Positions 14,555-64,000 are shown, counted from the first letter of the stretch. The stretch is DNA of 64,000 bases from Thermodesulfobacteriota bacterium (GCA_036769565.1 DAIPKW010000001.1:44416-108415), one strand, 5' to 3'. Numbers and translations are program-made. Notes: generated from the sequence alone by a model not told the origin.

Positions 14555-14593
14555 CAATAAAAAAGGGCATCCTGCCCTCTGCAGGATGCCCTC
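14555..14593 (-). terminator. Rho-independent terminator after the binding-protein gene
   Basis: Perfect 11-bp stem GGGCATCCTGC/GCAGGATGCCC with a 5-nt loop, followed on the minus strand by TTTTTTATT. Confidence 0.65.
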
Positions 14594-14608
14594 TCAAGGA
14601 TCTCTTTC

Positions 14609-15619
14609 TCATTTCAAGAAGAGGCTCTCCCACTTCTTCAGGATCTCATCCCGATTCTTTGCCTGCCAGGCAAAATCCATTGGATAGAGTTTGATTTCGG
14701 ATAGTTTGGGAAGGTCCGGTCGCGTCGGAATGCCAGGGAGAGTCACTCCATATTTGAACTTTGAATATTCTCTCATTGCGCTTTCGCTGATCGCCCAATC
14801 GAGAAACTTCTTGGCCGCTGCCACATTCTTTGCCCCTTTGAGAAGGGCATTGGCTTCCACTTCATAGCCCGCTCCTTCAATGGGGAATACAAATTCAACT
14901 GGGAACCCCTGTTTTTTTTGCTCTGCCACCACAAAGTCGAAAGAGGCGCCTACTGCGAATTCACCAGCCGCAGTCATCTTGGCAGGTCTTGATCCGCTCT
15001 TAATATACTGGCCCATATTCTTATCCAGTTTCTTTAGAAATTCCCAGCCATCCTCTTTTCCCTCTTTAGCCCCATACATCTGGAGAATGCTTGAAACCTG
15101 GAGAAACCCTGTTCCTGAAGCAACTGGATTAGGCATGGCAATCAATCCCTTAAATCTCGGATCGAGTAGGTCGTTCCACCCTTTGGGCATTGGAAGCCCT
15201 TTCTCTTTTAAAACCTTTGTGTTCACACAGAAGGCGGCAATATACATATCAATTCCCACATAGGCAAATCCTGGATGAACAAACTTTTTCTCCAGCTTCT
15301 CAACGCCTTTGGGCTTATAGGGTTCTAGCATTCCCTTAGCAACGAAATCCTCCATGTTTGTGACTGCCCATCCCCAGATGAGATCTGCTTGTGGATTGGC
15401 TCGTTCGGCTAACATTCTGGCCCCAAGTTCCCCTGTGGAAAGCCGAATGACATGGATTTCGAGGCCTGGAAGATCCCTGAGATAGGCTTCTCGATATTTA
15501 TCAATCTCATCTGTCTCTAAGGAGGTGTAAACGACGACCTTCTCCTTAGCCATCACATTCCCTGAAAGAAAGATCACCAATAAAAGACTTACCATCAACA
15601 TCCACCCTCTTCGCTTCAT
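14609..15619 (-). CDS. Periplasmic substrate-binding protein, family 1 (Fe(III)/2-aminoethylphosphonate/polyamine type)
   Basis: N-terminal signal peptide MKRRGWMLMVSLLLVIFLSGNVMA. FbpA/PhnS-like fold signature. The start at 15619 has a perfect AGGAGG RBS 7 nt upstream. The ORF extends to 15661. Confidence 0.8.
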   Translation of the reverse strand: MKRRGWMLMVSLLLVIFLSGNVMAKEKVVVYTSLETDEIDKYREAYLRDLPGLEIHVIRLSTGELGARMLAERANPQADLIWGWAVTNMEDFVAKGMLEPYKPKGVEKLEKKFVHPGFAYVGIDMYIAAFCVNTKVLKEKGLPMPKGWNDLLDPRFKGLIAMPNPVASGTGFLQVSSILQMYGAKEGKEDGWEFLKKLDKNMGQYIKSGSRPAKMTAAGEFAVGASFDFVVAEQKKQGFPVEFVFPIEGAGYEVEANALLKGAKNVAAAKKFLDWAISESAMREYSKFKYGVTLPGIPTRPDLPKLSEIKLYPMDFAWQAKNRDEILKKWESLFLK

Positions 15620-21305: not shown

Positions 21306-21434
21306 AACAAGAATAACCAATCACCCAGCACCAATTACCAAATAATAATCAATTTTCCAAACATGGTATTGTTTGGTTATTGGAAATTGAAATTTATTTG
21401 GAGCTTGGAATTTGGTTATTGGTGATTAAGGTTT

Positions 21435-22454
21435 ATGGACATTCTCATCTTCGATATGGATGGGGTTTTGATTGATGTGACGCAGTCTTACCGTAGAACC
21501 ATCCAGAAGACCATTCATATCTATCTTGAACAATGTCTTGGGCTAAAGGCAAATCGGGTCTCCCCAGAAGACATCTCTCTCTTCAAGTCTGCAGGAGGAT
21601 TTAATAACGATTGGGACCTTACTTCAGGATTCCTTCTCTATCTGCTTTCTACCTCAAAAGTCCATCCCCTCCCAGTAAAGAAGTTCTCTTCCTTGGACAA
21701 AATCGTACTCCATCTTCGACAGCAGCTAACCGGATTCCGTCAAAGAAGACCTGTCTCTTTGAAAAGGAATCACCTTTCTTCTTTTTTGGAGCAGGTGAGG
21801 ATATCCGGAGGAGGATTGAAGGGGATTCGGTCTGTTCTCGACAGATGTTGGGATGGGTGGATCTACCGATCCGGAAATCTCGCCAAAGAAAACCTTATAA
21901 AACGGATCTTTCAAGAGATCTACCTCGGCGAAAAATTTTCTTCCCTTTATCACCTTCCTTGCCTTTTCTACCATGGAAAGGGGCTATTTCTGCGAGAGAA
22001 ACTTCTCATTGAAAGAAATGTTCTTGCATCCCTTCGGAGAAAGATGCGATTGGGAATTGCCAGCGGTCGTCCAAAATTCGAAGCGGAGCTTGCCCTGAAG
22101 CGATTCCGGATCTTCCCATACTTCGATAGTGTGGTCACCCTCGACGAATGCGAACAAGAGGAAGCGAAAATCTTCAAAGAAACCCGTAGGAAGATCAGGC
22201 TCTCAAAACCCCACCCCTTTTCCATTCTCAAAGCGATCGAGGAGATCGGCATTCCAAATCCCCAATGCGGATATGTCGGTGATGTGGTCGATGATGTGTT
22301 GGCAGCTCAGAGGGCAAAAAAGAAGGTGCGGATGCTTGCCATCGGTTTTGCCGTAGATGGAGGGAATAAAAAGAGAGCCAGAGAAACTCTGTTAAAAGCT
22401 GGGGCTGATTACGTCATTGAAAACCCCCAACAACTCCTTGATCTCGCCGTTTAA
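21435..22454 (+). CDS. HAD superfamily hydrolase with large cap insertion
   Basis: Motif I IFDMDGVLID and motif IV GYVGDVVDDVLAAQRA, with an insertion of about 200 aa between them. Confidence 0.6.
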   Translation: MDILIFDMDGVLIDVTQSYRRTIQKTIHIYLEQCLGLKANRVSPEDISLFKSAGGFNNDWDLTSGFLLYLLSTSKVHPLPVKKFSSLDKIVLHLRQQLTGFRQRRPVSLKRNHLSSFLEQVRISGGGLKGIRSVLDRCWDGWIYRSGNLAKENLIKRIFQEIYLGEKFSSLYHLPCLFYHGKGLFLREKLLIERNVLASLRRKMRLGIASGRPKFEAELALKRFRIFPYFDSVVTLDECEQEEAKIFKETRRKIRLSKPHPFSILKAIEEIGIPNPQCGYVGDVVDDVLAAQRAKKKVRMLAIGFAVDGGNKKRARETLLKAGADYVIENPQQLLDLAV

Positions 22455-24332: not shown

Positions 24333-24365
24333 TCGTCGGCCTGTCAGAATCTCATTCCAACAGCA

Positions 24366-24405
24366 TAAAAAAGCCCGATAAGGGATTCCTTTATCGGGCT
24401 TTTTC
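24366..24405. terminator. Bidirectional rho-independent terminator between convergent genes
   Basis: Perfect 10-bp stem AGCCCGATAA/TTATCGGGCT with a 9-nt loop, flanked by AAAAA and TTTTT. Confidence 0.7.
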
Positions 24406-24423
24406 TACGATGGGCTCACTTCA

Positions 24424-25332
24424 TCAATTTAAAATATATCTCATCGGATTCACTGGAATTCCGTTCAATCTGACTTCATAATGGAGATGGGGACCTGTCG
24501 TCTTTCCACTTGTCCCGATCTCTGCAATCTTATCCCCTCGTTTCACTTTCTGCCCCACTTTAACCAGCACCTTGTTGAGATGGCTATACCGGGTTGTCAT
24601 CCCGAACCCATGGGAAATGACGAGGAACCTTCCATGGACCCAATCGCTTCCGATATCGGAGACAAAGCCATTTGCAGGAGCTATCACAATCGTTCCTACC
24701 CTGTTGGAAATATCAATCCCCTCATGCATCTGAGTCAAACCTGTAAAAGGGTTGGTCCGGAATCCAAAATCGGAGGTCACCCATCCCTGGGCTGGCCAGA
24801 TGGAAGGGGTATGCGCAAGCATCTCCTGCTTGGTTAATAGGACTTTTTCGAGTTCGGAGAGACTGGTCTCCTGAGATACCACCTCTGATTGGAGGCGCTC
24901 CACATCGATCTTCATCTGCTGAACCAGCCCCTTATCATCCTTCTCCCCTTTCAATTTCTCTCTTAAATCCGAGGGTGATGGTCCACCCAATCCCATCACC
25001 GGTGTGGAGTCCTGACTTTTATCGAGATTGGCAATGATCCGAATGCGCTTGTCAAAATCTTTCAGCTTAGAGACCTGCTTTTCTAACTCCTCAATTTTTG
25101 AAGAGAAGAAATGGATCTGAGACCTTTGTATTTCCGTCTGTTGACGCAACCGTGCCACCTCATAGGCCTTCTTCTTCACCTGGATATAATCACAAAAGAA
25201 AAAGGTTACAGAGAGAATGGCAAAAGCAAAGAGGTAGAAGCCAATCTTAATGGTCTTTTTTCGGATCTTCAGATGCCTGGTCTTCGATGTTTTGTGGCCG
25301 AAGATGAGAATGGTGATGTGATCCTGATCCAA
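24424..25332 (-). CDS. M23 family metallopeptidase with N-terminal coiled coil (EnvC/NlpD-like)
   Basis: C-terminal HEGIDI...GTSG.TTGPHLHYEVR M23 motifs, N-terminal TM segment and coiled coil. Confidence 0.8.
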   Translation of the reverse strand: MDQDHITILIFGHKTSKTRHLKIRKKTIKIGFYLFAFAILSVTFFFCDYIQVKKKAYEVARLRQQTEIQRSQIHFFSSKIEELEKQVSKLKDFDKRIRIIANLDKSQDSTPVMGLGGPSPSDLREKLKGEKDDKGLVQQMKIDVERLQSEVVSQETSLSELEKVLLTKQEMLAHTPSIWPAQGWVTSDFGFRTNPFTGLTQMHEGIDISNRVGTIVIAPANGFVSDIGSDWVHGRFLVISHGFGMTTRYSHLNKVLVKVGQKVKRGDKIAEIGTSGKTTGPHLHYEVRLNGIPVNPMRYILN

Positions 25333-51626: not shown

Positions 51627-52958
51627 TTACAAAACCGAAAAATACTGCTCTAACTCATAGTCTGTGACGCGGGAGCGGTAACGCTCCCATTCGACCTTCT
51701 TATTCTCAATAAACTTATAGAAGACTTCGTCTCCGAGGGCTCTTCGTACCAGATCACTTTTCTCCGTGACCTGAATCGCTTCCCAGAGGTCCTCTGGTAG
51801 GGTTTCAATCCGATGTCTCCTTCTCTCTTTTTCGGTCATCTCATAGACATTTCTCTCCACCGGATCTCTTAAAGGATACTTCTTCTCGATCCCCTCTAGC
51901 CCAGCCGCCAACATCACAGAGAAGGCTAAATAGGGATTGCAGGCCGGATCTGGGCACCGGTATTCCACACGGGTCGCAAGCTCCTTTCCTGGTTTGTAGA
52001 CGGGGATTCGGATGAGATCGGAGCGGTTCTTCTGTGCCCAAGAGATATAGACCGGCGCTTCGTAACCAGGCACCAACCGCTTATAGGAGTTTACCCATTG
52101 ATTGGTAACCAGGGTGATCTCACGGGCATGCTTCATCAGTCCGGCAATATAATGTTTGGCGACATCGGATAGATGATACTTATCTTTCGGATCGAAAAAG
52201 GCATTCTTACTTCCTTTAAAAAGAGACTGATGTGTATGCATCCCACTTCCGTTGATTCCAAAAACAGGTTTAGGCATGAAACTGGCATATACACCATTCT
52301 TTAGAGCTACCTCTTTGACGACCAATCGGTAGATCATCGTATTATCGGCCATCGTTAAGGCATCTGTATACTTTAAATCAATTTCATGTTGACTGGGTGC
52401 GGCTTCATGGTGGCTGTATTCAACTTGGATGCCCATCTCTTCCAGGACCATAACAGCCTGTTTGCGGAGGTCGCTTGCCACATCAAGAGGGGTCAAATCG
52501 AAATAGCCTCCTGAATCGAGAAGCTCTGGCTTGCCCGAAGAATTCCTAAAATAGAAAAACTCCAGCTCTGGGCCTACGTTAAAGGTGTATCCCATCTTTT
52601 GAGCCCTCTCCAGATTCCTCTTTAACACCCAGCGAGGATCACTCTGATAAGGTTTCCCATCGGGCTGTAGGATGTCGCAGAACATGACCGCCACCACATG
52701 GTCATTTGCCTTCCAGGGGAAAATCCTGAAGGTAGATGGATCAGGCTTGGCCACCATATCGCTTTCATCAATCCTTGCAAAACCGGCCACAGAGGAGCCG
52801 TCAAACCCCATTCCGTCTTCAAGAGCTGATTCTAATTCGCGAATGGTGATCGCAAAGCTCTTCAAAAAGCCGAGGATATCGGAGAACCATAGCCTGACAA
52901 ACCTGACCTTCTTCTCCTTTGCAATCCTCAGAACATCCTCTCTACTTAATTTAGCCAT
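51627..52958 (-). CDS. glnA: Glutamine synthetase, type I
   Basis: 443 aa with GS beta-grasp and catalytic domains. AGAGGGGGA RBS. Confidence 0.9.
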   Translation of the reverse strand: MAKLSREDVLRIAKEKKVRFVRLWFSDILGFLKSFAITIRELESALEDGMGFDGSSVAGFARIDESDMVAKPDPSTFRIFPWKANDHVVAVMFCDILQPDGKPYQSDPRWVLKRNLERAQKMGYTFNVGPELEFFYFRNSSGKPELLDSGGYFDLTPLDVASDLRKQAVMVLEEMGIQVEYSHHEAAPSQHEIDLKYTDALTMADNTMIYRLVVKEVALKNGVYASFMPKPVFGINGSGMHTHQSLFKGSKNAFFDPKDKYHLSDVAKHYIAGLMKHAREITLVTNQWVNSYKRLVPGYEAPVYISWAQKNRSDLIRIPVYKPGKELATRVEYRCPDPACNPYLAFSVMLAAGLEGIEKKYPLRDPVERNVYEMTEKERRRHRIETLPEDLWEAIQVTEKSDLVRRALGDEVFYKFIENKKVEWERYRSRVTDYELEQYFSVL

Positions 52959-53285: not shown

Positions 53286-53418
53286 AATGACGGACAAACT
53301 GAATTTATAAACAGAAACTAATTAAAGATAGAACAGGTTTAGCATAATCCCCCTTCTCGGGTCAACCCCAATGTCTTCCAATTGACAATGATTCACCTTT
53401 TTTGTAAATTAAGTCCAA

Positions 53419-54147
53419 ATGGCTAAGAAAGGAGTTCCCACATTGCTTTACAAAAAGACTTCCTACAAACAGCAGATCAAGGCCCTCACTGAAATCAGCA
53501 AGGCCATCTCGTCAGATAGGTACCTTGATGATATTCTAAAACTGATCGTGACAGTCACGGCCAATGTGATGGACTCAAAGATCTGCTCTCTCTGGCTTCT
53601 CGATGAGAAAGAGAAGGCTCTCAAAATCCGAGCCACCCAAACCATGAGCGAGGAATATCTGAAAGAGAGGAGCCTAAAATTGGGTGAGGGTGTTGTAGGC
53701 TATGTGGCCCAGACCAAAAAACCCCTGGCCATCCTCGATGTCCTCAAAGAGCCCCGGTATAAGGAGAAAGAGTTGGCAAAAAAGGAAGGTCTGGTCTCCA
53801 TGCTGAGCGTCCCTCTTGCCATTAAGGATAAGGTCATCGGCGTGATCAACTGCTATACCTCTTATCCTCATCAATTTACCGAAGCAGAACAAGACATGCT
53901 TACGGCAGTTGCCAGTCAAGCCGCCATCTGTATTGAGAGTACGGAGTTGATGGTAAAAACTAAGGTGATCCAAGAGGAATTGGAGGTTCGAAAACTGATC
54001 GAAAGAGCAAAGGGTATTCTGATGAAACGGCAGGGGCTGAGCGAAGAGGAAGCCTTCAAACGGATCCGCAAGGCGAGCATGGATAGCCGAAAAACGATGC
54101 GCGAAATCGCCGAAGCCATCCTCCTCACCGACAAAATGGGTGGGTAG
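53419..54147 (+). CDS. GAF plus ANTAR domain RNA-binding antitermination regulator
   Basis: N-terminal GAF-like domain and the C-terminal ANTAR motif EVRKLIERAKGILMKRQGLSEEEAFKRIRKASMDSRKTMREIAEAIL. Confidence 0.8.
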   Translation: MAKKGVPTLLYKKTSYKQQIKALTEISKAISSDRYLDDILKLIVTVTANVMDSKICSLWLLDEKEKALKIRATQTMSEEYLKERSLKLGEGVVGYVAQTKKPLAILDVLKEPRYKEKELAKKEGLVSMLSVPLAIKDKVIGVINCYTSYPHQFTEAEQDMLTAVASQAAICIESTELMVKTKVIQEELEVRKLIERAKGILMKRQGLSEEEAFKRIRKASMDSRKTMREIAEAILLTDKMGG

Positions 54148-54228
54148 TGAAAATAGCTCCTGACATTGGATATACGACAAAGAAAGAGATGTCATCCGTC
54201 TGTCATCCATAAAGTAAACCTCGCTTAT

Positions 54229-54309
54229 TCCCACCCTAAAGACGGGGCTTTTCTTCATCCTTGGATTTGAAATTGCCTTCATCCCCAGTCTAAAGACTGG
54301 GGCTTTCGG
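54229..54309 (+). other. Two tandem copies of a CCC...CTAAAGAC...GGGGCTTTC unit. The second is a perfect 8-bp hairpin
   Basis: cccaccctaaagacggggcttttc and ccccagtctaaagactggggctttc. Possible terminator or attenuator between the ANTAR gene and the UPF0261 gene. Confidence 0.4.
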
Positions 54310-54508
54310 GATTATACGGAGTGATGTTCTGTAATGGTTGTTTGACACTCTTCAAAAGAACCCACCACGGGCTATTTAAGATGATAGCTCCTGTTTCCAA
54401 TGCAACAACGGGCTTAACTTGCCACCTTCCTTCTCTAAGAGGAACACAGGACAGAGTTGACAACCAGAAATAACCTGGGGTATAGAAATCGCTAAAAAGG
54501 AGAAAAAG

Positions 54509-55710
54509 GTGAAAACAATTGCCATCCTTGGAACTCTAAACACCAAGAGAGAAGAAATTAACTATATTAGAGAGAGAATCATAGAGAAGGGCCATCAAGC
54601 GATCATCGTCGATCTCAGCCTCAATCTATGGGATACATCTTCCTTTAGATCCGATATAGGCCAGCAACAGATAGCCGACGAGAGCGGGATGAAATTGGAG
54701 GAATTAACCTCAATGGCTCAAGAGGAGGCGTGCACCGTCGTTATCAAGGGTGCTACCAGCCTCGTGGGTAAACTTTACCGGTCCGGGAAATTGAACGGTA
54801 TTCTGGCGCTCGGTGGCACAGTAGGAACGTCAATGGGTTGCGCTGTGATGAGAAGTTTACCATTGGGTATCCCCAAATTGATGGTCTCAACTTTTGTTAG
54901 CGATATCCGACCATTTGTAGGCAATAAAGATATTGTCTTTTTTCCATCGAACATTGATATGTTCGGGCTGAACCATATCTCCAAAAGGCTTCTGGCCAAA
55001 GCTGCAGGGGCTATTGTAGGGATGGTCGAAGCCGATACAGTTCCTTTCACGCTGAAAAACCCATCATTGGGATGTCAGTGCGTGGTGATAAGGCCCCATG
55101 TGTTGATAGGGTAAAGTCTCTGCTTGAGAAGAACGGATTTGAAGTGATCTGTTTCCACGCCGTGGGCCAGGGGTTGCTCTTGGAAGAATTGGTAAGGGAA
55201 GGGATCATTGGAGGTGTATTAGACCTCGTCCCAGCTGAAGTGAATGAGTACCTCTTTGGAGGAATGTTCAGCGCTGGTCCAGAGCGTTTAGAGGCGGCGG
55301 CTAAAAGGGGAATCCCCCAGCTGATTAGCACAGGTGGGATAGAATTCGTCTGTTTTCCAGACGAAAAGGTTATTCCACCACCGTTTAGAAAACGAAAGAG
55401 GAGAGCTCATAACCCCAATGTCATTGCGGTCTGGCTGAATAAAAAGGAGATGATCCAGGTAGCTAAGGTAATGGCAGAAAAGTTGAACCTGGCTAAGGGC
55501 CCAACAGCCGTGATCATTCCAATGAAAGGCTTCGGTGGAGGGGGTTGGACCATCGATCCAAAACTGATTCCCGTCTTGATCAGCACCCTTAGGGAAGAAC
55601 TAAAACCTGAGATCGAAGTGATGGAAGTCGATGCCCACATCAATGACAGCTCCTTTGCCAATGCAGCTGTAGAACTCTTTCTTAAGTTGATGAACAAAAC
55701 GAAAGAATGA
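54509..55710 (+). pseudogene. UPF0261 (Tm-1-like ATP-binding) family gene split by a +1 frameshift near 55070
   Basis: The 54509-55114 frame ends ...TLKNPSLGCQCVV.... The 55072-55710 frame continues MSVRGDKAPCVDR.... Together they make about 400 aa, the normal length. A single-base indel in ttgggatg restores ...SLGMSVRGDK... Confidence 0.6.
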
Positions 55711-55862
55711 GGGGATTGCAATAGGCTTCATTTTATATCCTCAGAATCAAGGACCCTAATAAAATTAGGAACGTCCGTGAAGTTCTATTCTTCTTGTGTG
55801 CCACCCCCGAATTATCAACAATTAATGATTTTTGAAATTGACGTCTTTGATAGGTAAACAGG

Positions 55863-56753
55863 GTGAGGAATAAAATGGATGATTCCATCTTTAAAGGGTT
55901 TCGAGAGATAAATCGCCAACATTTCCACCAAATCTGGAAAAAGGCTCAAAAAGGCGAGTTACAGACCTTAACTGAGGAGGAGCAGCGCATCGGAAAAATT
56001 ATGCTTGACCATTCTGATGAGTATTTCAATCAGTTTGAATTCGCTGATGTCCTGGCTGATCACCAATATGATCCTGAGACGGAAACGAACCCTTTTTTAC
56101 ACGTTGCCATCCACGCCGTTGCGGAGAAGCAGGTTCAGGATCGTGACCCCATCGAAGCATTCCAATTCTATAATGCCATGCTCCATAACAAATGCAGTCG
56201 GCATGATGCCATTCATCTTCTCGGAGACATCCTGATAAGATTTACCCATTATGTCCTGAAAGAGAATAAGCCCTTTCCACTCAACCGCTACTGTAAAACC
56301 TTGAAAGAACTAAAATCCAGGAAACCGGAAAAGATCCCTCAACTTCTGGAAGATATCGAGTTTTATGAAGAACAACAGGAGTATGGAAAAAGTGGATCGA
56401 ATCCCAAAATCGAAAGGTTTTTGGCCCAATTAAAGCGAAAACATCCTCACCTTCGGGCTTACGAAGAGGATGACCTCGACTGGTGGGAAGATGGAATGAC
56501 GATGTTGGAATTGGGTGATTTGAAAGGAGCTGAGAAAAAATTTGAACAACTCATCCTTGCAGAGCCCGAACACCATGATGGTTATGAAGGACTTGCGATG
56601 GTCTATCAAAGAAAAGGCAAAAAGGAAGAAGCTCTCCTTCTTATCGAACATGCCCTCACCTTGGCAAAAGGATTCTTTGAAGACGGGACACTGGATCAAG
56701 AAATTCTTGATGAGATGGAGGAGAAAAAGCAAAAGATCTTTAAAATGAAATAG
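55863..56753 (+). CDS. Hypothetical protein with a TPR-like helical C-terminus
   Basis: 296 aa, acidic, helical repeats near the C-terminus. Confidence 0.5.
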   Translation: MRNKMDDSIFKGFREINRQHFHQIWKKAQKGELQTLTEEEQRIGKIMLDHSDEYFNQFEFADVLADHQYDPETETNPFLHVAIHAVAEKQVQDRDPIEAFQFYNAMLHNKCSRHDAIHLLGDILIRFTHYVLKENKPFPLNRYCKTLKELKSRKPEKIPQLLEDIEFYEEQQEYGKSGSNPKIERFLAQLKRKHPHLRAYEEDDLDWWEDGMTMLELGDLKGAEKKFEQLILAEPEHHDGYEGLAMVYQRKGKKEEALLLIEHALTLAKGFFEDGTLDQEILDEMEEKKQKIFKMK

Positions 56754-56877
56754 CGTGTATGTGAATGCCAAAAGGAGTTCAGAGGCCTTTGTGGATATGG
56801 AGGGATTTTCGTAAAAGAATTTGATTTTACCCTATTAAACATATTAAACATAAAAATACCCAATGAAATCCATTTGA

Positions 56878-59526
56878 TTGGCTGAGGAAATGGGTTCTTC
56901 TACAGTGCCTAGCGGCATTCAGGCTTTGGATGATGTACTACAGGGAATTCGTCTCGGTGACAATGTGGTCTGGCAGGTGGAGCGGTTAGAGGATTACCTC
57001 TACTTTGCCGTCCCATTTGCTGAAGCCTCCATCGCCTCCAAGCGGCGCATGGTCTATCTTCGGTTCGCCTCCCATCCTCCTGTTCTGACACCGCGACCGG
57101 GTTTGGAGATCATTGAATTAAATCCTGCTCTGGGGTTCGACTACTTTTCAAAGGAAACGCATCGCCTCATTGAAGCCTATGGCCATGAGGTCATGTACGT
57201 CTTTGACAATCTCTCTGCCCTGGTGGTGGAGTGGGCCACAGATGAACTTTTAGCCAATTTTTTTCAGATCACCTGCCCTTTGCTCTACGAATATGACACC
57301 ATCGCCTATTTTGCCTTAACGCGCGGCCAGCACGCACATCATGCCGTTGCCCGGATTCGGGACACCACCCAGATCCTGGTGGATGTCTACCAGATCAATG
57401 GACAGATGCATATCCACCCCATCAAGGTCTGGGATCGCTACTCGCCTCAGATGTTTCTTCCCCATCTTGTGGCAGGAGACCAGTGGGCACCTCTTGCACA
57501 AAGTCAGGAAGCGGCCAAGGTGCTTTCGTCGGCCTATCAATCGCCTCTCCTCGACACCACTCGACCGATCGCCCCCTGGGAAAGTGTCTATCAAAAACTC
57601 CTCCACTATCGCAACACTGCTTCGGGATTTGACGAGACCGATCCAGAACAACTGGCTTTAAAATTGGAATTGAGCCGGATGCTCATTGGCCATCACCCGG
57701 TCTTCAGTCAGTTAGCCGACCGTTACTTTACACTGGATGATCTTTTTCAAATTCGTAACCGCATGATCGGGGCAGGCCGGATCGGTGGAAAAGCGGCTGG
57801 CATGCTGTTGGCGAGGCGAATCCTGCTGTCATCAAAGGAGAATGATGGATTTGACTTTGCAGAGAGGCTTGATGACCATGACTCCTTCTATATCGGCTCG
57901 GATGTGTTTTTCACCTTTCTGGTCAACAATGATCTGTTCCGTCTCCGTCTTCGATTGACCTGCAATTCCGAAACGTCTCATGACGAGTTCCAGGAGATTG
58001 AGAAGCGTTTTTTAGCCGGTCGTTTTTCAGCCATGGTCCAGGAGCAATTTCAGGCCATGCTTGACTACTATGGCCAGGCACCCATTATCGTCCGCTCCAG
58101 CAGCCTTTTGGAAGATAGCTTTGGAAATGCCTTCGCAGGCAAGTATTCGAGCATCTTCTGCCCGAACCAGGGAACCCCGGAGGCCCGCCTGGCGGAATTT
58201 ATGAAAGCGGTTAAATTGGTTTACGCCAGCGCCCTCAATCCGGATGCGCTCTGCTATCGGAGCAAGCGGGGCCTGGGCGAATATGACGAACAGATGGCCA
58301 TTCTCGTTCAGCGCGTCTCGGGTATGCCCTATCGCCACTACTTTTTCCCCACCCTGGCAGGAGTCGCCTTTTCACGCAATCTCTATGCCTGGAACGACCT
58401 CATCGATACCCGTCAGGGAATCATCCGACTGGTCTTCGGTCTGGGCACCCGGGCTGTGGATCGGGTCGATTCCGACTACCCCCGTATGATTGCGATCAGC
58501 CATCCACACCTACGTCCAGAAGTGGGGCCCAAAGTCTACAAATACTCCCAGCACCATATGGATCTGATCGACCTGAAAAAGAATCAGTTCACCACTTGTT
58601 TGTTGACCGATGTCCTCTCGGATGGCGACTATCCCAATCTCCACCTCTTGCTTTCGATGATGCGTGACCGTTATCCTTATGATCCCATCTCTAAAAAAGT
58701 CCTTGGTAATAAAGATCAATGGGTCTTCACCTTTAATAACTTAATCCAACAGACCGATTTCGTACCCCTCATGGGAAAAATATTAACCAGACTGGAAGAA
58801 GCCTACGGCCAGCCAGTAGACATCGAGTTTACCGCCTCTCTCGATACAATGAACCGCATCCATATCAACCTGCTTCAATGCCGTCCGCTCTATCTGCCTG
58901 GATCTCTGGAAGATGTATCCATACCGGATTCTCTCCATAGGAGCCAAATTCTATTTCGCGCCCACCGAATGATCTGTGGCGGCTTCGTGGAACAAATCCG
59001 TTACATCCTCTACATCGATCCAAAAACCTACAATCGCATCAGCTACGAGGCCAAAAAATCCCTGGGCCGCATGGTCGGACAAATCAACAGACATCCAATG
59101 ATTCGGTTTGAAAAGATCATCATGATGGGACCGGGACGCTGGGGAACCAGTAACATCGCCCTCGGAGTCAATGTGAGTTATGCCGACATTGATAATGCTT
59201 CGGTTTTGGTGGAAATGGCCCTCGAAGAGGCAGGACATGTGCCTGAAGTCTCATACGGAACACACTTTTTCCACGATTTGATCGAGGCCCGGATCATTTA
59301 CCTGCCGGTCTACCCTGCCGACCGCTCATCAGAGCTTCAGACAAAATTCTTTGAAACCTCGCCCAATGTGCTCTGTGAGTTTTTGCCTGAAGCCAAAGAA
59401 TTTGAATCGGTTCTCCATCTGATTGATGTTCCCAGATCAACTGGAGGGGCATTGGTTCAGGTGGTTGCCGATCCGAGGCGGCAACAGGCAGTCTGTTTTT
59501 TAGATAAACCTGTCCCAACGGTTTGA
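56878..59526 (+). CDS. PEP/pyruvate-binding (PPDK_N, ATP-grasp-like) domain protein with a degenerate KaiC/RecA-like N-terminal domain
   Basis: The central IIVRSSSLLEDSFGNAFAGKYSSI matches the nucleotide-binding domain of PEP synthase and PPDK. The N-terminal SGIQALDDVLQGIRLGDNVVW resembles the KaiC/RAD55 GIPGLDE..GGG..G..V motif but has no Walker A GKT. There is no recognisable phosphohistidine swivel motif. Confidence 0.7.
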   Translation: MAEEMGSSTVPSGIQALDDVLQGIRLGDNVVWQVERLEDYLYFAVPFAEASIASKRRMVYLRFASHPPVLTPRPGLEIIELNPALGFDYFSKETHRLIEAYGHEVMYVFDNLSALVVEWATDELLANFFQITCPLLYEYDTIAYFALTRGQHAHHAVARIRDTTQILVDVYQINGQMHIHPIKVWDRYSPQMFLPHLVAGDQWAPLAQSQEAAKVLSSAYQSPLLDTTRPIAPWESVYQKLLHYRNTASGFDETDPEQLALKLELSRMLIGHHPVFSQLADRYFTLDDLFQIRNRMIGAGRIGGKAAGMLLARRILLSSKENDGFDFAERLDDHDSFYIGSDVFFTFLVNNDLFRLRLRLTCNSETSHDEFQEIEKRFLAGRFSAMVQEQFQAMLDYYGQAPIIVRSSSLLEDSFGNAFAGKYSSIFCPNQGTPEARLAEFMKAVKLVYASALNPDALCYRSKRGLGEYDEQMAILVQRVSGMPYRHYFFPTLAGVAFSRNLYAWNDLIDTRQGIIRLVFGLGTRAVDRVDSDYPRMIAISHPHLRPEVGPKVYKYSQHHMDLIDLKKNQFTTCLLTDVLSDGDYPNLHLLLSMMRDRYPYDPISKKVLGNKDQWVFTFNNLIQQTDFVPLMGKILTRLEEAYGQPVDIEFTASLDTMNRIHINLLQCRPLYLPGSLEDVSIPDSLHRSQILFRAHRMICGGFVEQIRYILYIDPKTYNRISYEAKKSLGRMVGQINRHPMIRFEKIIMMGPGRWGTSNIALGVNVSYADIDNASVLVEMALEEAGHVPEVSYGTHFFHDLIEARIIYLPVYPADRSSELQTKFFETSPNVLCEFLPEAKEFESVLHLIDVPRSTGGALVQVVADPRRQQAVCFLDKPVPTV

Positions 59527-59732: not shown

Positions 59733-60404
59733 TCAAATGGGATTCGGGTCGCAGAAGCAGCCAAAAGTGCCTTCCGTGCAACAATTGGGCATCTCTTCCA
59801 ACCTGATACATCTTCCGCAGAGTTCTCCGGGTTCTTTCACTCCCTGACAAGGAACGACCATTCCTGGGCAGACATAATCGCATCCCCTGCAGAGACGGCA
59901 GGTGTCGGGTCGGACTTGAAAAGGCATACTGATCTTCCTGCCCGTTCCTCTTCCCACAAAACCGAGCGCCCTTCCATCCATCTGCTCATAACACATCCGA
60001 ATGCAGAGGCCGCAAAGCACACACCGGTTATCTTCCATTGGAAATCGGACTTTAAGAAGTCCCATGCGAGCCGCAATATCCTGTGCAATCTTCACATTGG
60101 GTGCACTGGCCACCAGAAGTTCTGCCAGCATCTTTCGTGCGCGGATGATCCGTGGGGTCTGTGTTTGAATCACCAAACCCTCTCTCACCTCATAGGTACA
60201 GGCTGTATCAATAAATGGCTTACCGCCATTTTGGCTAATCTCTACCACACAGATCCTGCATCCTCCATAAGGAGAAAGGTGCTCCATATAACACATCGTG
60301 GGAATGTGGATCCCAAATTGACGTCCCGCTTCAAGGATGGTGCTCCCCTGCTCCACTTCTAACAAACGCCCATCAATAGTGATCTGAACTGTTTTTCTCT
60401 CCAT
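59733..60404 (-). CDS. 2Fe-2S plus 4Fe-4S iron-sulfur protein, NuoG N-terminal fragment / HoxU-like
   Basis: Plant-ferredoxin-like 2Fe-2S (C..GGCRIC) followed by His-ligated and 4Fe-4S cluster motifs. 223 aa, no catalytic domain. Confidence 0.75.
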   Translation of the reverse strand: MERKTVQITIDGRLLEVEQGSTILEAGRQFGIHIPTMCYMEHLSPYGGCRICVVEISQNGGKPFIDTACTYEVREGLVIQTQTPRIIRARKMLAELLVASAPNVKIAQDIAARMGLLKVRFPMEDNRCVLCGLCIRMCYEQMDGRALGFVGRGTGRKISMPFQVRPDTCRLCRGCDYVCPGMVVPCQGVKEPGELCGRCIRLEEMPNCCTEGTFGCFCDPNPI

Positions 60405-60469: not shown

Positions 60470-62320
60470 CTATTGAACCATCACTGCTTCAACTTTACAA
60501 ACATCTTTACAGGAACCGCATTTTGAGCAGCGCTCGGCTACAATACGATGTACCTGTTTCTTCTCACCAACAATGGCCTGGGTCGGGCAGATCTTCGCAC
60601 AGGCACCACATCCAGTGCATGCCTCTGAAATGACATATTGGATGAGCGATGTACATACACCAGCAGGGCATCTTTTTTGATGAATATGAGCCTCAAATTC
60701 TGGGCGAAAATATCTCAGCGCTGAAAGCACCGGATTAGGTGCTGTCTTTCCCAGACCGCAGAGGGAGGTATCCGCCACGACCTCAGACAATTCTTCAAGG
60801 AGTGCCAAACTCTCTTCATCTCCTTCTCCCTCCGTAATCCTATCGAGAATCTGCCCCATCCTTTTCAGTCCTTCACGGCAGGGAAGACATTTACCACAGG
60901 ATTCCTCCTCTAAGAAATGGACAAAATACCTCGCCACATCGACCATACAGGTCCCCTCATCCATCACGATCATTCCTCCAGAGCCCATCATCGAACCCAC
61001 CTGCGTTAAACTGTCGAAATCAACTGGAAGATCGAATAAGGAAGCAGGAATACAACCCCCTGATGGTCCCCCTGTCTGCACTGCTTTAATCTTTCGCCCA
61101 TCTTGCGGACCACCCCCAATGTCGTAGATGATCTCTTTAAGGGTGATGCCCATGGGGACTTCTACCAATCCGGTATTCTTCACTTTCCCTACCAGAGAAA
61201 AGATCTTTGTCCCCTTGCTCTTTTCGTTGCCAATAGAGGAGAACCATTGGCTTCCCCTCTCAATGATCAATGGAACATTGGCCCAAGTTTCGACATTGTT
61301 GAGATTCGTGGGTTTCCCCCAGAGTCCTCGGTTTACGGTGTGAACCTGTTTACTTCTGGGTTCTCCAACCCTCCCCTCGATGGACGCAACCAAAGCAGTC
61401 GATTCTCCGCAGACAAAGGCACCACCTCCTTTGGCAATCTCCACATCGAAATCAAAACCAGAGCCCAGAATGTTTTTCCCAAGCAATCCTGCCTTTCTGG
61501 CCTGGATGATGGCAATCTCACCATTCTGACAAGCCAGGGGATACTCATGTCTGACGTAGATGTACCCATGGCTTCCCCCGATCGCATAGGCGCCTATGAT
61601 CATCCCTTCCAAGATCGAATGAGGGTTCCCCTCGAGTAAGCTTCGGTCCATATAGGCTCCTGGATCTCCCTCATCGCAATTGCATATGATATACTTTGGA
61701 CTACCTTGGGCATGGCGGCAATCATTCCATTTTTGACCTGTTGGAAATCCAGCCCCTCCTCTTCCTCTCAAACCAGATGCCTTCACCTCATCGATGATCT
61801 GTTCAGGCTCCATTTCAAAGAGAGCCTTTGCCAGGGCCTGATATCCCCCGATGCCGATATAGTCCTCTATCTTCGCCGGATCGAGTAAGCCGTTATTTCC
61901 TAAGAGCAATCGATTCTGTAATTTATAAAAAGAAACCTCTCTCTCTGAGGAGATCTTTCTTTTAGTGCTTGTGTCCTCGTAGAGGAGATTTTCCAATACT
62001 TTTCCCTTTCCAATCGTCTCCGAAAGGATGATCGGTACATCCTTTTCTTGCACCTTCTGATAAAAAATTCCATGCGGTTGGATGGTCACAATGGGTCCCC
62101 TTTCACAGAACCCCCGGCATCCAGTAAACCTCAATCGGATCTTTTTATCCATGAGGTTATTTTTTATGCCTTTGGCAAACTGGTCCCTCACCTTTTTACA
62201 TCCATAAGCATGACATCCGGTGCCACCGCACACGGATACAGTCATCTCATAGCGCTTCTGCTTTAAAAGGATATCATCTCTCCACTGATCTAAATCCTTA
62301 AGTGATTTGACTTTTCTCAT
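60470..62320 (-). CDS. NAD(P)H dehydrogenase flavoprotein subunit, NuoF/HoxF/HndC-like, with N-terminal thioredoxin-like 2Fe-2S and C-terminal 2x4Fe-4S domains
   Basis: GRGGAGFPTG..W FMN/NADH site and the SLBB region. N-terminal CGGTGC...C..C and C-terminal ferredoxin Cys clusters. 616 aa. Confidence 0.85.
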   Translation of the reverse strand: MRKVKSLKDLDQWRDDILLKQKRYEMTVSVCGGTGCHAYGCKKVRDQFAKGIKNNLMDKKIRLRFTGCRGFCERGPIVTIQPHGIFYQKVQEKDVPIILSETIGKGKVLENLLYEDTSTKRKISSEREVSFYKLQNRLLLGNNGLLDPAKIEDYIGIGGYQALAKALFEMEPEQIIDEVKASGLRGRGGAGFPTGQKWNDCRHAQGSPKYIICNCDEGDPGAYMDRSLLEGNPHSILEGMIIGAYAIGGSHGYIYVRHEYPLACQNGEIAIIQARKAGLLGKNILGSGFDFDVEIAKGGGAFVCGESTALVASIEGRVGEPRSKQVHTVNRGLWGKPTNLNNVETWANVPLIIERGSQWFSSIGNEKSKGTKIFSLVGKVKNTGLVEVPMGITLKEIIYDIGGGPQDGRKIKAVQTGGPSGGCIPASLFDLPVDFDSLTQVGSMMGSGGMIVMDEGTCMVDVARYFVHFLEEESCGKCLPCREGLKRMGQILDRITEGEGDEESLALLEELSEVVADTSLCGLGKTAPNPVLSALRYFRPEFEAHIHQKRCPAGVCTSLIQYVISEACTGCGACAKICPTQAIVGEKKQVHRIVAERCSKCGSCKDVCKVEAVMVQ

Positions 62321-62805
62321 GACTTCACCCCACTCCGCTTGTTATTTATTTTTTCAATAATTCTTCTGGCCTTGATGGGTGTCATCTCTCCATAAAATTT
62401 TTGATCCACCATCATCACTGGACCAATGGCACAGACCCCAAGACAGTTCACCACATTTAGAGAAAACTGTTTATCTGAAGTGGTTTGCCCGGGTTCAATG
62501 CAAAGGAAACTCTTAAGTTCTCTCAAAATCTTTGGGCCTCCCCGAACATGGCAGGCTGTTCCCATGCAGAGCGTGATGGAGTGTCTACCCTTTGGAACGA
62601 GACTGAATGATTTATAGAAGGTTGCAACGCCATAGATCTCATTGATGTCCATGCGGAGCCTGGAGGCAATCATTCTTAATGCCTCTTCAGGAAGATAGCG
62701 ATAACGGTCCTGCACATCGTGTAGAATGCTTATAAGAGCAGTTCTCTTCTCCTGATACTTGTCGACGATAAAATCGACTGATTTTAGGTCCATATTCCCC
62801 TCCAA
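62317..62805 (-). CDS. NuoE/HoxE-like thioredoxin-fold 2Fe-2S subunit
   Basis: 162 aa. C...GTACHVRG...C...C pattern of the 24-kDa subunit family. Confidence 0.8.
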   Translation of the reverse strand: MEGNMDLKSVDFIVDKYQEKRTALISILHDVQDRYRYLPEEALRMIASRLRMDINEIYGVATFYKSFSLVPKGRHSITLCMGTACHVRGGPKILRELKSFLCIEPGQTTSDKQFSLNVVNCLGVCAIGPVMMVDQKFYGEMTPIKARRIIEKINNKRSGVKS

Positions 62806-62893: not shown

Positions 62894-63964
62894 TTATAAC
62901 CCCGACCTCGGTGGACTTAAAATCCAAAGTATTACAGCCTCTCCTCTCCCTCTATTTGACCATTTTGAAGGAAAAGTCGACCCAATATATAGGCTATCTC
63001 CTTGTTTTAATATATGATTTTCGTTATTGATTTCTACCTCAAGTTCTCCTGCCATGACATAGACAAATTCATCTCCCTTGTGACTATAGAAGTGGCCTTT
63101 GACTATAGCTCCCTCCTTGAGCGTTAATAGATAAGGTTCCATTCTCCGGTTGAGGGAATCCGAAATTAGGAGCTGGAGTTTGACATCTTTCCCCCTAATG
63201 GATGGAAGCTGAATCTCTTGTCTTTCGTCTGATCTGATGACCAGCTTTTGGAGAGGACTACTTTCGCTTTCCACTAAAAAGTAGATGGGCTGTGTATTCA
63301 ATTTCTCACTCAATTTAAGAAGAGAATCGAGAGAGGGACTAATCAGATTCTTTTCAAGTTGTGAAATGAAGCTTGGGGTTAGCCCTACCTGTTCCGCTAA
63401 TTCCTTCTGAGTCATCCCCGCTTTCTTCCTTAGTGATCTGACCTTTTCGCCGAGATTGCTGGGTCTTCTACCCCCAATCGACGGAAAGATGATCTCTTCA
63501 TCCCAGACCTCATAATGTTTAGGAAGAAAGGCGGTCTTTGAAAACCGACCTTCAATCTTGATGGCCTTGAAAAAGAGTTCCCCATCCTTTTTCTCAAGTT
63601 CAATGGCAACTTGAGTGATATGCTTGAGATTGGCTTTAAAGGATGCGGAATGTGCCTCTTTCTCTAATACCCAATAAGCAACGGTCTGAAGATCATAGAG
63701 CCGGGGACAGGAGTAGGTAAAAAACTTATACGTCAGGTTCTCATCCCCCCAGATATCTTGCATACCTGTGAGGCTGTCGAAGATATAACGAACGCCTGGT
63801 CCCTTCTCAATCTCTATTCGGTCTATGGCCACCCGAAATTGTGAGTGGTCTTTTGGGTTTTCAACCTTGATGACATGTCCTCTGAACCCTTCTCTCTCTT
63901 TTTCATAGAACTGAGCGAAGAGGGGATCACTGTTTCCTTTTCCGGAGGTAAAGCAATCAAGCAC
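62894..63964 (-). CDS. XRE family HTH transcriptional regulator with C-terminal cupin domain and an uncharacterised N-terminal domain of about 185 aa
   Basis: Central LRKKAGMTQKELAEQVGLTPSFISQLE XRE HTH and a C-terminal cupin (HSHKGDEFVYVMAGELEV). Heads the diaphorase operon. Confidence 0.7.
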   Translation of the reverse strand: MLDCFTSGKGNSDPLFAQFYEKEREGFRGHVIKVENPKDHSQFRVAIDRIEIEKGPGVRYIFDSLTGMQDIWGDENLTYKFFTYSCPRLYDLQTVAYWVLEKEAHSASFKANLKHITQVAIELEKKDGELFFKAIKIEGRFSKTAFLPKHYEVWDEEIIFPSIGGRRPSNLGEKVRSLRKKAGMTQKELAEQVGLTPSFISQLEKNLISPSLDSLLKLSEKLNTQPIYFLVESESSPLQKLVIRSDERQEIQLPSIRGKDVKLQLLISDSLNRRMEPYLLTLKEGAIVKGHFYSHKGDEFVYVMAGELEVEINNENHILKQGDSLYIGSTFPSKWSNRGRGEAVILWILSPPRSGL

Positions 63965-64000
63965 GGTTAAATGTTCTAAATGTGAAAGGTGGGATAAGCG

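Follow-up and report, generated by a model that had tools for sequence, protein, structure and literature searches.

For the ANTAR proteins EutV, NasR and AmiR, a dual-hexaloop RNA that overlaps a terminator has been described as the target (Ramesh et al. 2012, PMC3369931), and in the eut system the two hairpins are separated by a linker of 5-12 nt whose alteration abolished induction (PMC3369931). No GAF-ANTAR protein is characterised according to that study, and we found no description of a GAF-type ANTAR regulator in the literature searched, which included a 2025 review. Here, we examine a region headed by such a regulator, positions 53,419 to 59,526 of a 64,000-nt stretch from a Thermodesulfobacteriota bacterium (GCA_036769565.1, DAIPKW010000001.1:44416-108415), the whole of which we call the window. 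The GAF-ANTAR gene is followed on the same strand by a pair of hairpins, a UPF0261 sequence, a gene for a protein with DUF1841 and TPR domains (DUF1841-TPR) and a gene for an 882-aa protein with a PPDK_N domain, which a first-pass annotation of the sequence had read together as a possible antitermination-controlled cassette. We consider it likely, with some reservation, that the region is not a self-contained cassette and instead forms part of a nitrogen-assimilation neighbourhood, in which a lineage-specific insertion splits the regulator from the ~880-aa gene.

Gene neighbourhood and the probable insertion

Our comparison is based on 88 loci anchored on the 882-aa protein, which we fetched and searched with the proteins of the window. 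In the closest relative (locus L006, 95% protein identity), the gene order is glnA ← → GAF-ANTAR → PPDK_N protein → gdh → GAF-GAF kinase → NtrC-like → nadE, and 120 nt without hairpins lie between the stop codon of the ANTAR gene and the next start codon, that of the 882-aa gene. Nucleotide homology between L006 and the window (blastn) stops at 54143, the ANTAR stop codon, and resumes at 56895. UPF0261 and DUF1841-TPR genes are found in 0 of the 88 loci and have homologues elsewhere; because of this distribution and the break in homology, the 2.75-kb stretch that separates the large gene from the regulator gene is, by sequence comparison, specific to the lineage of the window. GC content does not mark the segment, and a global alignment of the intergenic DNA of L006 and the window was uninformative, as only the coding flanks align. 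We picture the ancestral layout as that of L006, glnA ← → GAF-ANTAR → ~880-aa protein, between whose last two genes the window lineage would have received the 2.75-kb segment with its strong hairpin, frameshifted UPF0261 sequence and DUF1841-TPR gene. The first-pass annotation had itself named a lack of synteny in related genomes as grounds for giving up the cassette, and the cassette genes are indeed not syntenic there. What does recur is the pairing of the ANTAR regulator with the large PPDK_N protein, which it had also proposed: the two genes are adjacent in L006, L008, L012, L033 and L085, and in L015 an ANTAR element precedes the 882-aa gene.

The large gene belongs to a family with more than 7800 near-full-length homologues (66-95% identity) that spans many phyla and at least 570 species-level genomes, the listed genomes being all metagenome-assembled genomes (MAGs). 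All open reading frames (ORFs) within 5 kb of the gene were clustered in 80 genomes with no prior assumptions. The most frequent neighbours are GDH (37 genomes), a PF01645 glutamate-synthase-like protein (17) and NrpR (PF01995; 15), followed by a GAF-sigma54 activator (11), a GAF-GAF histidine kinase (10), GAF-ANTAR and HisF (9 each), DapF (8), and CarB, an aminotransferase and AmtB (7 each). By tblastn, 38 of 80 genomes have GDH; it is the immediate neighbour of the gene in 27 and shares its strand in 34, with gaps between the gene and gdh as short as 17 nt in L033 and ~43 nt in L049. Three unrelated types of nitrogen regulator thus stand alongside the gene in different phyla. What is conserved, on this evidence from gene neighbourhoods, is the association of the 882-aa family with nitrogen-assimilation genes, not the five-part cassette. 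We found no publication on the family in the literature searched (PPDK_N with KaiC; pyruvate-binding domain with GDH).

In 15 bacterial genomes (L059-L088, Dehalococcoidia and others; e.g. L068:6184-7182), the NrpR-type repressor (PF01995 plus a winged helix-turn-helix) is a neighbour of both gdh and the 882-aa gene. NrpR is best known from methanogens.

Within the inserted segment, UPF0261 had been annotated as a single gene and turns out to be two overlapping ORFs in different frames, one for each domain. The lesion is a 1-nt deletion just before GAAAAACCC (~55051-55055): the window reads ACG CT- GAA AAA CCC, with one base lost within a codon, and homologues read ...T-x-E-K-P-L-I-G-M-S-V-R-G-D-K... 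in one frame. An assembly error is excluded, as three assemblies from different samples (JGI 3300010288, SRR5214706 and ERZ1744544), with at least 99.97% identity to the window, carry this lesion too; a homopolymer error was rejected as the cause of the split, as was programmed frameshifting. To judge from its reading frames, UPF0261 is a pseudogene with a fixed frameshift. The split gene might still function, as two polypeptides or via programmed -1 frameshifting, since each half still gives a full-length Pfam match with a high score (169 and 204 bits), the second ORF has an ATG of its own (55072) and the lesion is stable across the three samples. However, no ribosome-binding site is evident for that ATG, which falls within the conserved IIGMSV strand; the frame changes through a single missing nucleotide in a codon, with no X_XXY_YYZ slippery heptamer in the right frame; and the close homologues (77-79% identity) are all intact single ORFs of 395-409 aa. 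One activity is characterised in UPF0261, that of the aromatic kinase MarK, with an ATP-binding site placed in the N-terminal domain (PMC12624787), and we regard residual function of the split gene as very improbable.

The pseudogene also stands without the usual UPF0261 partner, as had been remarked: the PEP-hydrolase-like TIM barrel (PF09370) is not among the annotated ORFs of 49.3-64 kb, the rest of the window having had no search aimed at PF09370. A metagenome scan with the repaired UPF0261 protein returned two distant relatives only. Intact homologues sit in catabolic clusters, with beta-oxidation-like genes or with a TRAP transporter, carboxylase, CoA ligase and thiolase, and none is found beside nitrogen genes. 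The next gene, first described as a 296-aa TPR-like hypothetical, does encode one or two TPRs and is better described as DUF1841 plus TPR; its likely start, ATG 55875, taken from gene calls on identical contigs, gives 292 aa, over which P0121 is 100% identical. Its homologues (78% and 70% identity) are set among other, unrelated genes, and in GCA_900174595.1 the UPF0261 homologue is on one contig and the DUF1841-TPR homologue on another. The proposed cassette is a lineage-specific juxtaposition that includes a dead gene and is therefore of no wider import as a cassette.

ANTAR elements in relatives and the hairpins of the window

The regulator divergent to glnA is a GAF-ANTAR protein, as first annotated. 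Its ANTAR domain (PF03861) scores 81.4 bits against a cut-off of 27.3 and covers profile positions 4-54 of 54, and its N-terminal signal-input domain is a GAF domain (PF01590, 78.8 bits) that is nearest to the nitrogen-sensing GAFs of PtsP and NifA in the NCBIfam scan. The divergent arrangement with glnA is kept in L006, L007 and L009-L013. Between the GAF domain (53470-53952) and the first GAF of an NtrB-like histidine kinase whose gene lies only a few genes off in relatives (L006:8872-10629), identity is 69%; this likeness suggests a common nitrogen-status ligand, which outputs of two types, RNA-binding and phosphorelay, may both read. It is probably through its GAF domain that the GAF-ANTAR protein senses a nitrogen-status metabolite. 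The promoter-like TTGACA-17-TAAATT, kept in L006, ends only 9 nt 5' of the ATG, without a Shine-Dalgarno sequence, so the regulator mRNA may be leaderless; the sigma-54 promoter pattern has no match near glnA or the GAF-ANTAR gene.

Relatives were scanned for dual-hexaloop hairpins, a covariance model of the clade element, R1, was built, and pairing was assessed on a 13-sequence alignment. The element of the relatives consists of UCAAUAC-ANNGNN-GUAUUGA (P1, 7 bp with hexaloop ANNGNN), 1 nt, and GAC-AAAGGC-GUC (P2), then AAAGAAAUUUGGCGCC and U7, and the loop and 3' arm of P2 double as the 5' arm of a 9-bp terminator. In the alignment, P1 and P2 are paired in 100% of cells, P1 and the mutually exclusive terminator in 99%, and compensatory changes are seen in both P1 and the terminator. 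R1 finds 32 copies at E<=0.01 in Syntrophales-like relatives, often 2-4 in tandem with a period of ~61 nt, with strong TTGACA-17-TATAAT-type promoters directly 5' of the elements. They lie ~50 nt upstream of gdh and also upstream of the PF01645 glutamate-synthase-like gene, and in L015 the 882-aa gene has a bona fide ANTAR element upstream, at a distance of ~100 nt; in L014 the distance is ~510 nt. We expect that in relatives the GAF-ANTAR protein would act on these promoter-P1-P2/terminator leaders of gdh, the glutamate-synthase-like gene and, in some genomes, the ~880-aa gene, which makes the predicted GAF-ANTAR regulon, with its dual-hexaloop/terminator leaders before gdh and the glutamate-synthase-like gene, a clean and testable one.

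Tandem arrays occur upstream of the glutamate-synthase-like gene at L001:10712-10883, L010:12712-12883, L011:6593-6716 and L007:12721-12839. Such arrays would mean successive termination checkpoints within one leader.

The window holds something different. Two tandem units had been noted at 54229-54309, the second as a perfect GC-rich hairpin. There are indeed two direct units of 27 nt, 78% identical and 54 nt apart, and unit 2 is a perfect 8-bp hairpin, CCCCAGUC-UAAA-GACUGGGG (dG -14.6 kcal/mol); unit 1 forms only a 4-bp stem, ccct-AAAGAC-gggg (dG -4.7 kcal/mol). The 17-nt core of the units has 5 matches against 0.6 expected, the close ones being these two units only. Between them lies a small hairpin, tgaa-AUUGCC-uuca, with an A1/G4 hexaloop (A at position 1, G at position 4), which abuts the strong hairpin without overlapping it.

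Could these hairpins be the ANTAR recognition and terminator leader of a UPF0261-DUF1841/TPR-882 operon switched on by antitermination? The position would fit, since in L011, L013 and L014 a leader with ANTAR elements comes after the ANTAR gene and leads into a target gene. Unit 1 can form an A1/G4 hexaloop whose AAAGAC resembles the clade P2 loop AAAGGC, and the second A1/G4 hairpin stands directly 5' of the strong one. Against this, R1 finds no match in 54148-54508 even at E<=10 with filters off. The distance between the stems of the two units is 35 nt, and from P1 to the alternative P2 it is 20 nt, versus 1-4 nt in relatives and 5-12 nt in eut (PMC3369931). Unit 2, with its UAAA tetraloop on an 8-bp stem, allows no A1/G4 hexaloop, so two hexaloops cannot be made from the two units, and the small hairpin, as alternative P2, only abuts the strong stem, whose U-tract is just CUUUC, so that short linker and terminator overlap are both lacking. 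The window has 13 dual-hexaloop candidates where shuffles give 7.3, which is not significant. Neither L006 nor any of the other loci has the hairpin pair; downstream of it, a pseudogene comes first, and synteny of the genes there is seen in no other locus. An antitermination-controlled operon at this place is, in our judgement, highly doubtful, and the cassette reading of the first-pass annotation falls with it, UPF0261 and DUF1841-TPR being absent from all 88 loci.

We favour a simpler role for the hairpins. Unit 2 is probably a terminator or insulator that ends the transcription unit of the regulator, and the pair as a whole most likely ends or insulates the regulator transcript. A simple terminator scan calls neither hairpin, the U-tract of unit 2 being short, and an Rfam search of 52.9-60.5 kb at E<=10 gave noise only. 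A promoter-like site, TTGACA-18-TATAGA, was found by eye between the hairpins and UPF0261. The hairpin as a dispersed repeat was rejected, as there are only two copies in the 64 kb and none in other loci. Over the whole window, R1 finds nothing significant, the best E (0.44) falling on an ordinary terminator at 24364-24430, and the targets of the regulator should therefore lie elsewhere in the genome.

Two strong intrinsic terminators (GC stem plus U6), at 24364-24430 (-) and 14557-14614 (-), lie just past ORFs ending at 24424 and 14609; they are the best non-significant R1 matches, via the terminator half of the model. At 21372-21430 (+), two tandem AU/GU-rich A1/G4 hexaloop hairpins, uuugguu-AUUGGA-aauugaa and uuugguu-AUUGGU-gauuaag, stand 19 nt apart directly upstream of a HAD-family hydrolase ORF (21435-22454); their stems are weak and do not match the clade ANTAR model.

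Anatomy and proposed role of the ~880-aa protein

The likely start of the large protein, ATG 56890 from gene calls in identical contigs, gives 878 aa. The protein comprises a degenerate KaiC/RecA-like domain (aa ~8-200), a helical linker, an intact PPDK_N ATP-grasp domain (PF01326, aa 301-672, 159.5 bits) and a C-terminal alpha/beta domain (aa 673-882). An alignment of 71 sequences drawn from many phyla has 205 positions with at least 98% invariance, among them the ATP-grasp motifs GGK305, RSSS/ED, FAGKY and QCR669 and, in the C-terminal domain, GPGRWG and SYGTH796FF. The full-length AlphaFold model has a pLDDT of 63.5 and is confident at aa 10-185 and aa 680-880 (N-domain ~85-90). The model of the N-domain matches KaiC and RecA (Foldseek E 2.6e-9, probability 1.0) as well as the degenerate RecA domain of BcsE; Walker A (GxxxxGK[ST]) is absent, ERLEDY following the strand NVVWQV, and the family alignment has no invariant GK[ST]. 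The fusion of a Walker-A-less KaiC/RecA-like domain to PPDK_N was thus correctly recognised at the outset. A full-library search with the pseudo-KaiC domain gave 906 cluster representatives, most of ~850-885 aa and some of ~450 aa.

The same Walker-A-less N-domain is carried by an HTH_3 plus Cupin_2 regulator at the end of the window (62897-64000) and at L001:6440-7822 (-), with 27% identity over 226 aa (E 6e-23). The HTH-cupin gene is divergent from and adjacent to the 882-aa gene in L001, L010 and L018.

The C-terminal region had been reported to hold no recognisable phosphohistidine swivel. The canonical GG-x-TSH, which we take to be the swivel motif of PPDK, PpsA and Enzyme I, is indeed replaced by SYGTHFF; a swivel-like domain may exist all the same, which touches in part the second ground that the first-pass annotation had set against its own reading, a canonical rifampin phosphotransferase or PEP synthase paralogue with an intact swivel His domain. 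The closest structural neighbours of the C-domain are swivel phosphoryl-carrier domains, including 5hv1, in a Foldseek-PDB match that is not significant, and its invariant His lies at the N-end of a helix, so that the domain may be a divergent phosphohistidine swivel domain with His796 as its invariant residue. No gene with a canonical GG-x-TSH swivel is present in the fetched loci, and sequence and profile searches of the PDB gave weak matches to the ATP-grasp core only.

Identification as PEP (phosphoenolpyruvate) synthase, PPDK, rifampin phosphotransferase or PigC was rejected: the PEP/pyruvate TIM barrel (PF02896) is not present, and NCBIfam equivalog scores of 15-60 bits are far below cut-offs of 500-1350 (rifampin phosphotransferase, RPH, 22.6 against 999; PigC 28.9 against 1300; PEP synthase 60 against 883). 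The first-pass annotation, too, had set the protein apart from the canonical enzymes.

Taking domain anatomy and gene neighbourhood together, we interpret the protein as a phosphotransferase of pseudo-KaiC/ATP-grasp type and assign it to the nitrogen regulon. ATP would be bound in the ATP-grasp domain and its phosphoryl group passed to His796, from which the swivel domain would deliver it to an acceptor at the glutamate/2-oxoglutarate/ammonium node, with a small molecule or GDH itself as candidates; the N-terminal KaiC/RecA-like domain presumably serves oligomerisation or partner binding. A bolder version would make the family an ATP-spending component that ammonium assimilation has so far been missing in many anaerobic phyla and that works with GDH, either by phosphorylating the carbonyl of 2-oxoglutarate (carbonyl activation of the kind known from PEP synthase and PigC) to drive amination at low ammonium, or by phospho-regulation of GDH, with the gene brought independently under GAF-ANTAR, NrpR and sigma-54 activators. 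We offer this version as a long shot.

A different reading makes the protein a sensor of nitrogen or energy status, or a protein phosphotransferase, with GDH or a transcription factor as the target that it modifies or sequesters and the pseudo-KaiC domain as an interaction platform (e.g. with the paralogous domain of the HTH-cupin protein). This would explain why the degenerate KaiC domain is common to the 882-aa protein and the neighbouring HTH-cupin transcription factor, and it agrees with the tight, often co-oriented linkage to gdh across the very short gaps given above, with the position of the gene among NrpR, NtrBC-like proteins and ANTAR, and with the use of degenerate RecA domains as interaction modules in the structural match BcsE. 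On the other side, 58-95% identity over 880 residues across phyla, together with the invariant positions, is more typical of an enzyme with fixed chemistry; rifampin phosphotransferase and PigC, which join ATP-grasp and swivel domains without a TIM barrel, act on small molecules; and the HTH-cupin paralogue lies near the 882-aa gene in only ~4 of 80 genomes. We consider the sensor reading rather unlikely and retain that of a phosphotransferase within the nitrogen regulon.

Several points weigh against our overall account. The direction of the event that separates the window from L006, insertion here or deletion there, is taken from the absence of the genes in all relatives. About half of the loci, e.g. 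L003 and L004, have no nitrogen gene nearby. The terminator role of the hairpins is predicted, and their short U-tracts count against efficient termination; a weak P1-like AAAGAC hairpin and a second small A1/G4 hairpin precede the strong one, and some ANTAR binding may occur there. The nitrogen role is read from gene neighbourhood, the phosphoryl acceptor is at best a candidate, and the middle of the ATP-grasp domain is poorly modelled by AlphaFold.

The family is nonetheless worth attention, being very large, unusually conserved (58-95% identity) and annotated as 'PEP synthase' or 'PEP/pyruvate-binding protein', with GDH, glutamate-synthase-like genes and nitrogen regulators as its only consistent genomic partners. 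If a role at glutamate and ammonium is true, the reconstruction of nitrogen assimilation would change in Syntrophales, Dehalococcoidia, Anaerolineae, Omnitrophota and others, and a widespread mis-annotation would be corrected.

Layout of the region and comparison with described systems

Table 1. Features of the region and its surroundings, in window numbering, from an ORF listing with Pfam and NCBIfam profile scans
Feature	Position	Strand	Evidence
glnA, type I glutamine synthetase	51627-52958	-	Pfam Gln-synt_C 437 bits; TIGR00653 545 bits
Putative sigma-70-like promoter of GAF-ANTAR, TTGACA-17-TAAATT	53382-53410	+	function predicted
GAF-ANTAR RNA-binding antitermination regulator	53419-54147	+	ANTAR 81.4 bits, GAF 78.8 bits
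Non-coding gap, 361 nt	54148-54508		
Repeat unit 1, weak hairpin 54234-54247 then CUUUUCUUC	54227-54253	+	
Small A1/G4 hexaloop hairpin between both units	54268-54281	+	
Repeat unit 2, perfect hairpin 54283-54302 then CUUUC	54281-54307	+	
UPF0261 (Tm-1/MarK-like kinase) pseudogene	54509-55710	+	N-domain ORF 54509-55114, C-domain ORF 55072-55710
DUF1841 + TPR protein	55863-56753	+	Pfam DUF1841 58 bits, TPR_2 30 bits
882-aa PPDK_N protein	56878-59526	+	PPDK_N aa 301-672, E 1.7e-46
HoxU-like Fe-S protein	59733-60404	-	Pfam
NuoF-like protein	60470-62320	-	Pfam
NuoE-like protein	62317-62805	-	Pfam
HTH_3 + Cupin_2 regulator, cut by window end	62897-64000	-	

Beyond the large gene, the HoxU-like, NuoF-like and NuoE-like genes probably provide a split glutamate synthase with its NAD(P)H electron-input module. 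In two Actinomycetota MAGs (L033:11524-15609 and L085:13459-17543), genes for NuoF-like, HoxU-like Fe-S and PF01645 glutamate-synthase-like proteins form one operon, which adjoins GAF-ANTAR, the 882-aa homologue and gdh and suggests a split NAD(P)H-dependent glutamate synthase. The PF01645 gene itself is missing from the window, unlike in L033 and L085.

Set beside described systems, the parts of this region compare as follows:

(i) With EutV, NasR and AmiR, the regulator of the window shares a bona fide ANTAR domain and differs by its GAF sensor domain. The leaders in relatives are like those of the known systems, with two A1/G4 hexaloops, the second overlapping an intrinsic terminator, ahead of nitrogen genes, and many ANTAR regulons are predicted upstream of nitrogen genes, as in these relatives. 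The window differs in having no canonical element, the hairpins beside its regulator being off-motif.

(ii) With UPF0261/Tm-1/MarK proteins, the pseudogene shares both Pfam domains, and the catabolic context of its homologues fits a small-molecule kinase. It differs in its frameshift, in standing without partner genes and in having no link to nitrogen genes.

(iii) With rifampin phosphotransferase and PigC/RedH, the 882-aa protein shares a PPDK_N domain with all nucleotide-binding motifs and the lack of a TIM barrel. Its C-domain has swivel domains as closest, though non-significant, structural neighbours and an invariant His at the N-end of a helix. The protein differs by SYGTHFF in place of GG-x-TSH, by the extra Walker-A-less KaiC/RecA domain, and by a context of nitrogen assimilation rather than antibiotic resistance or pigment synthesis.

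(iv) With KaiC, RadA and RecA, including the N-domain of BcsE, the N-terminal domain shares its fold (Foldseek E 1e-9 to 1e-8). It differs in having no Walker A and in being single, not a double domain as in KaiC, and its fusion partner here is an ATP-grasp enzyme, or HTH-cupin in the paralogue.

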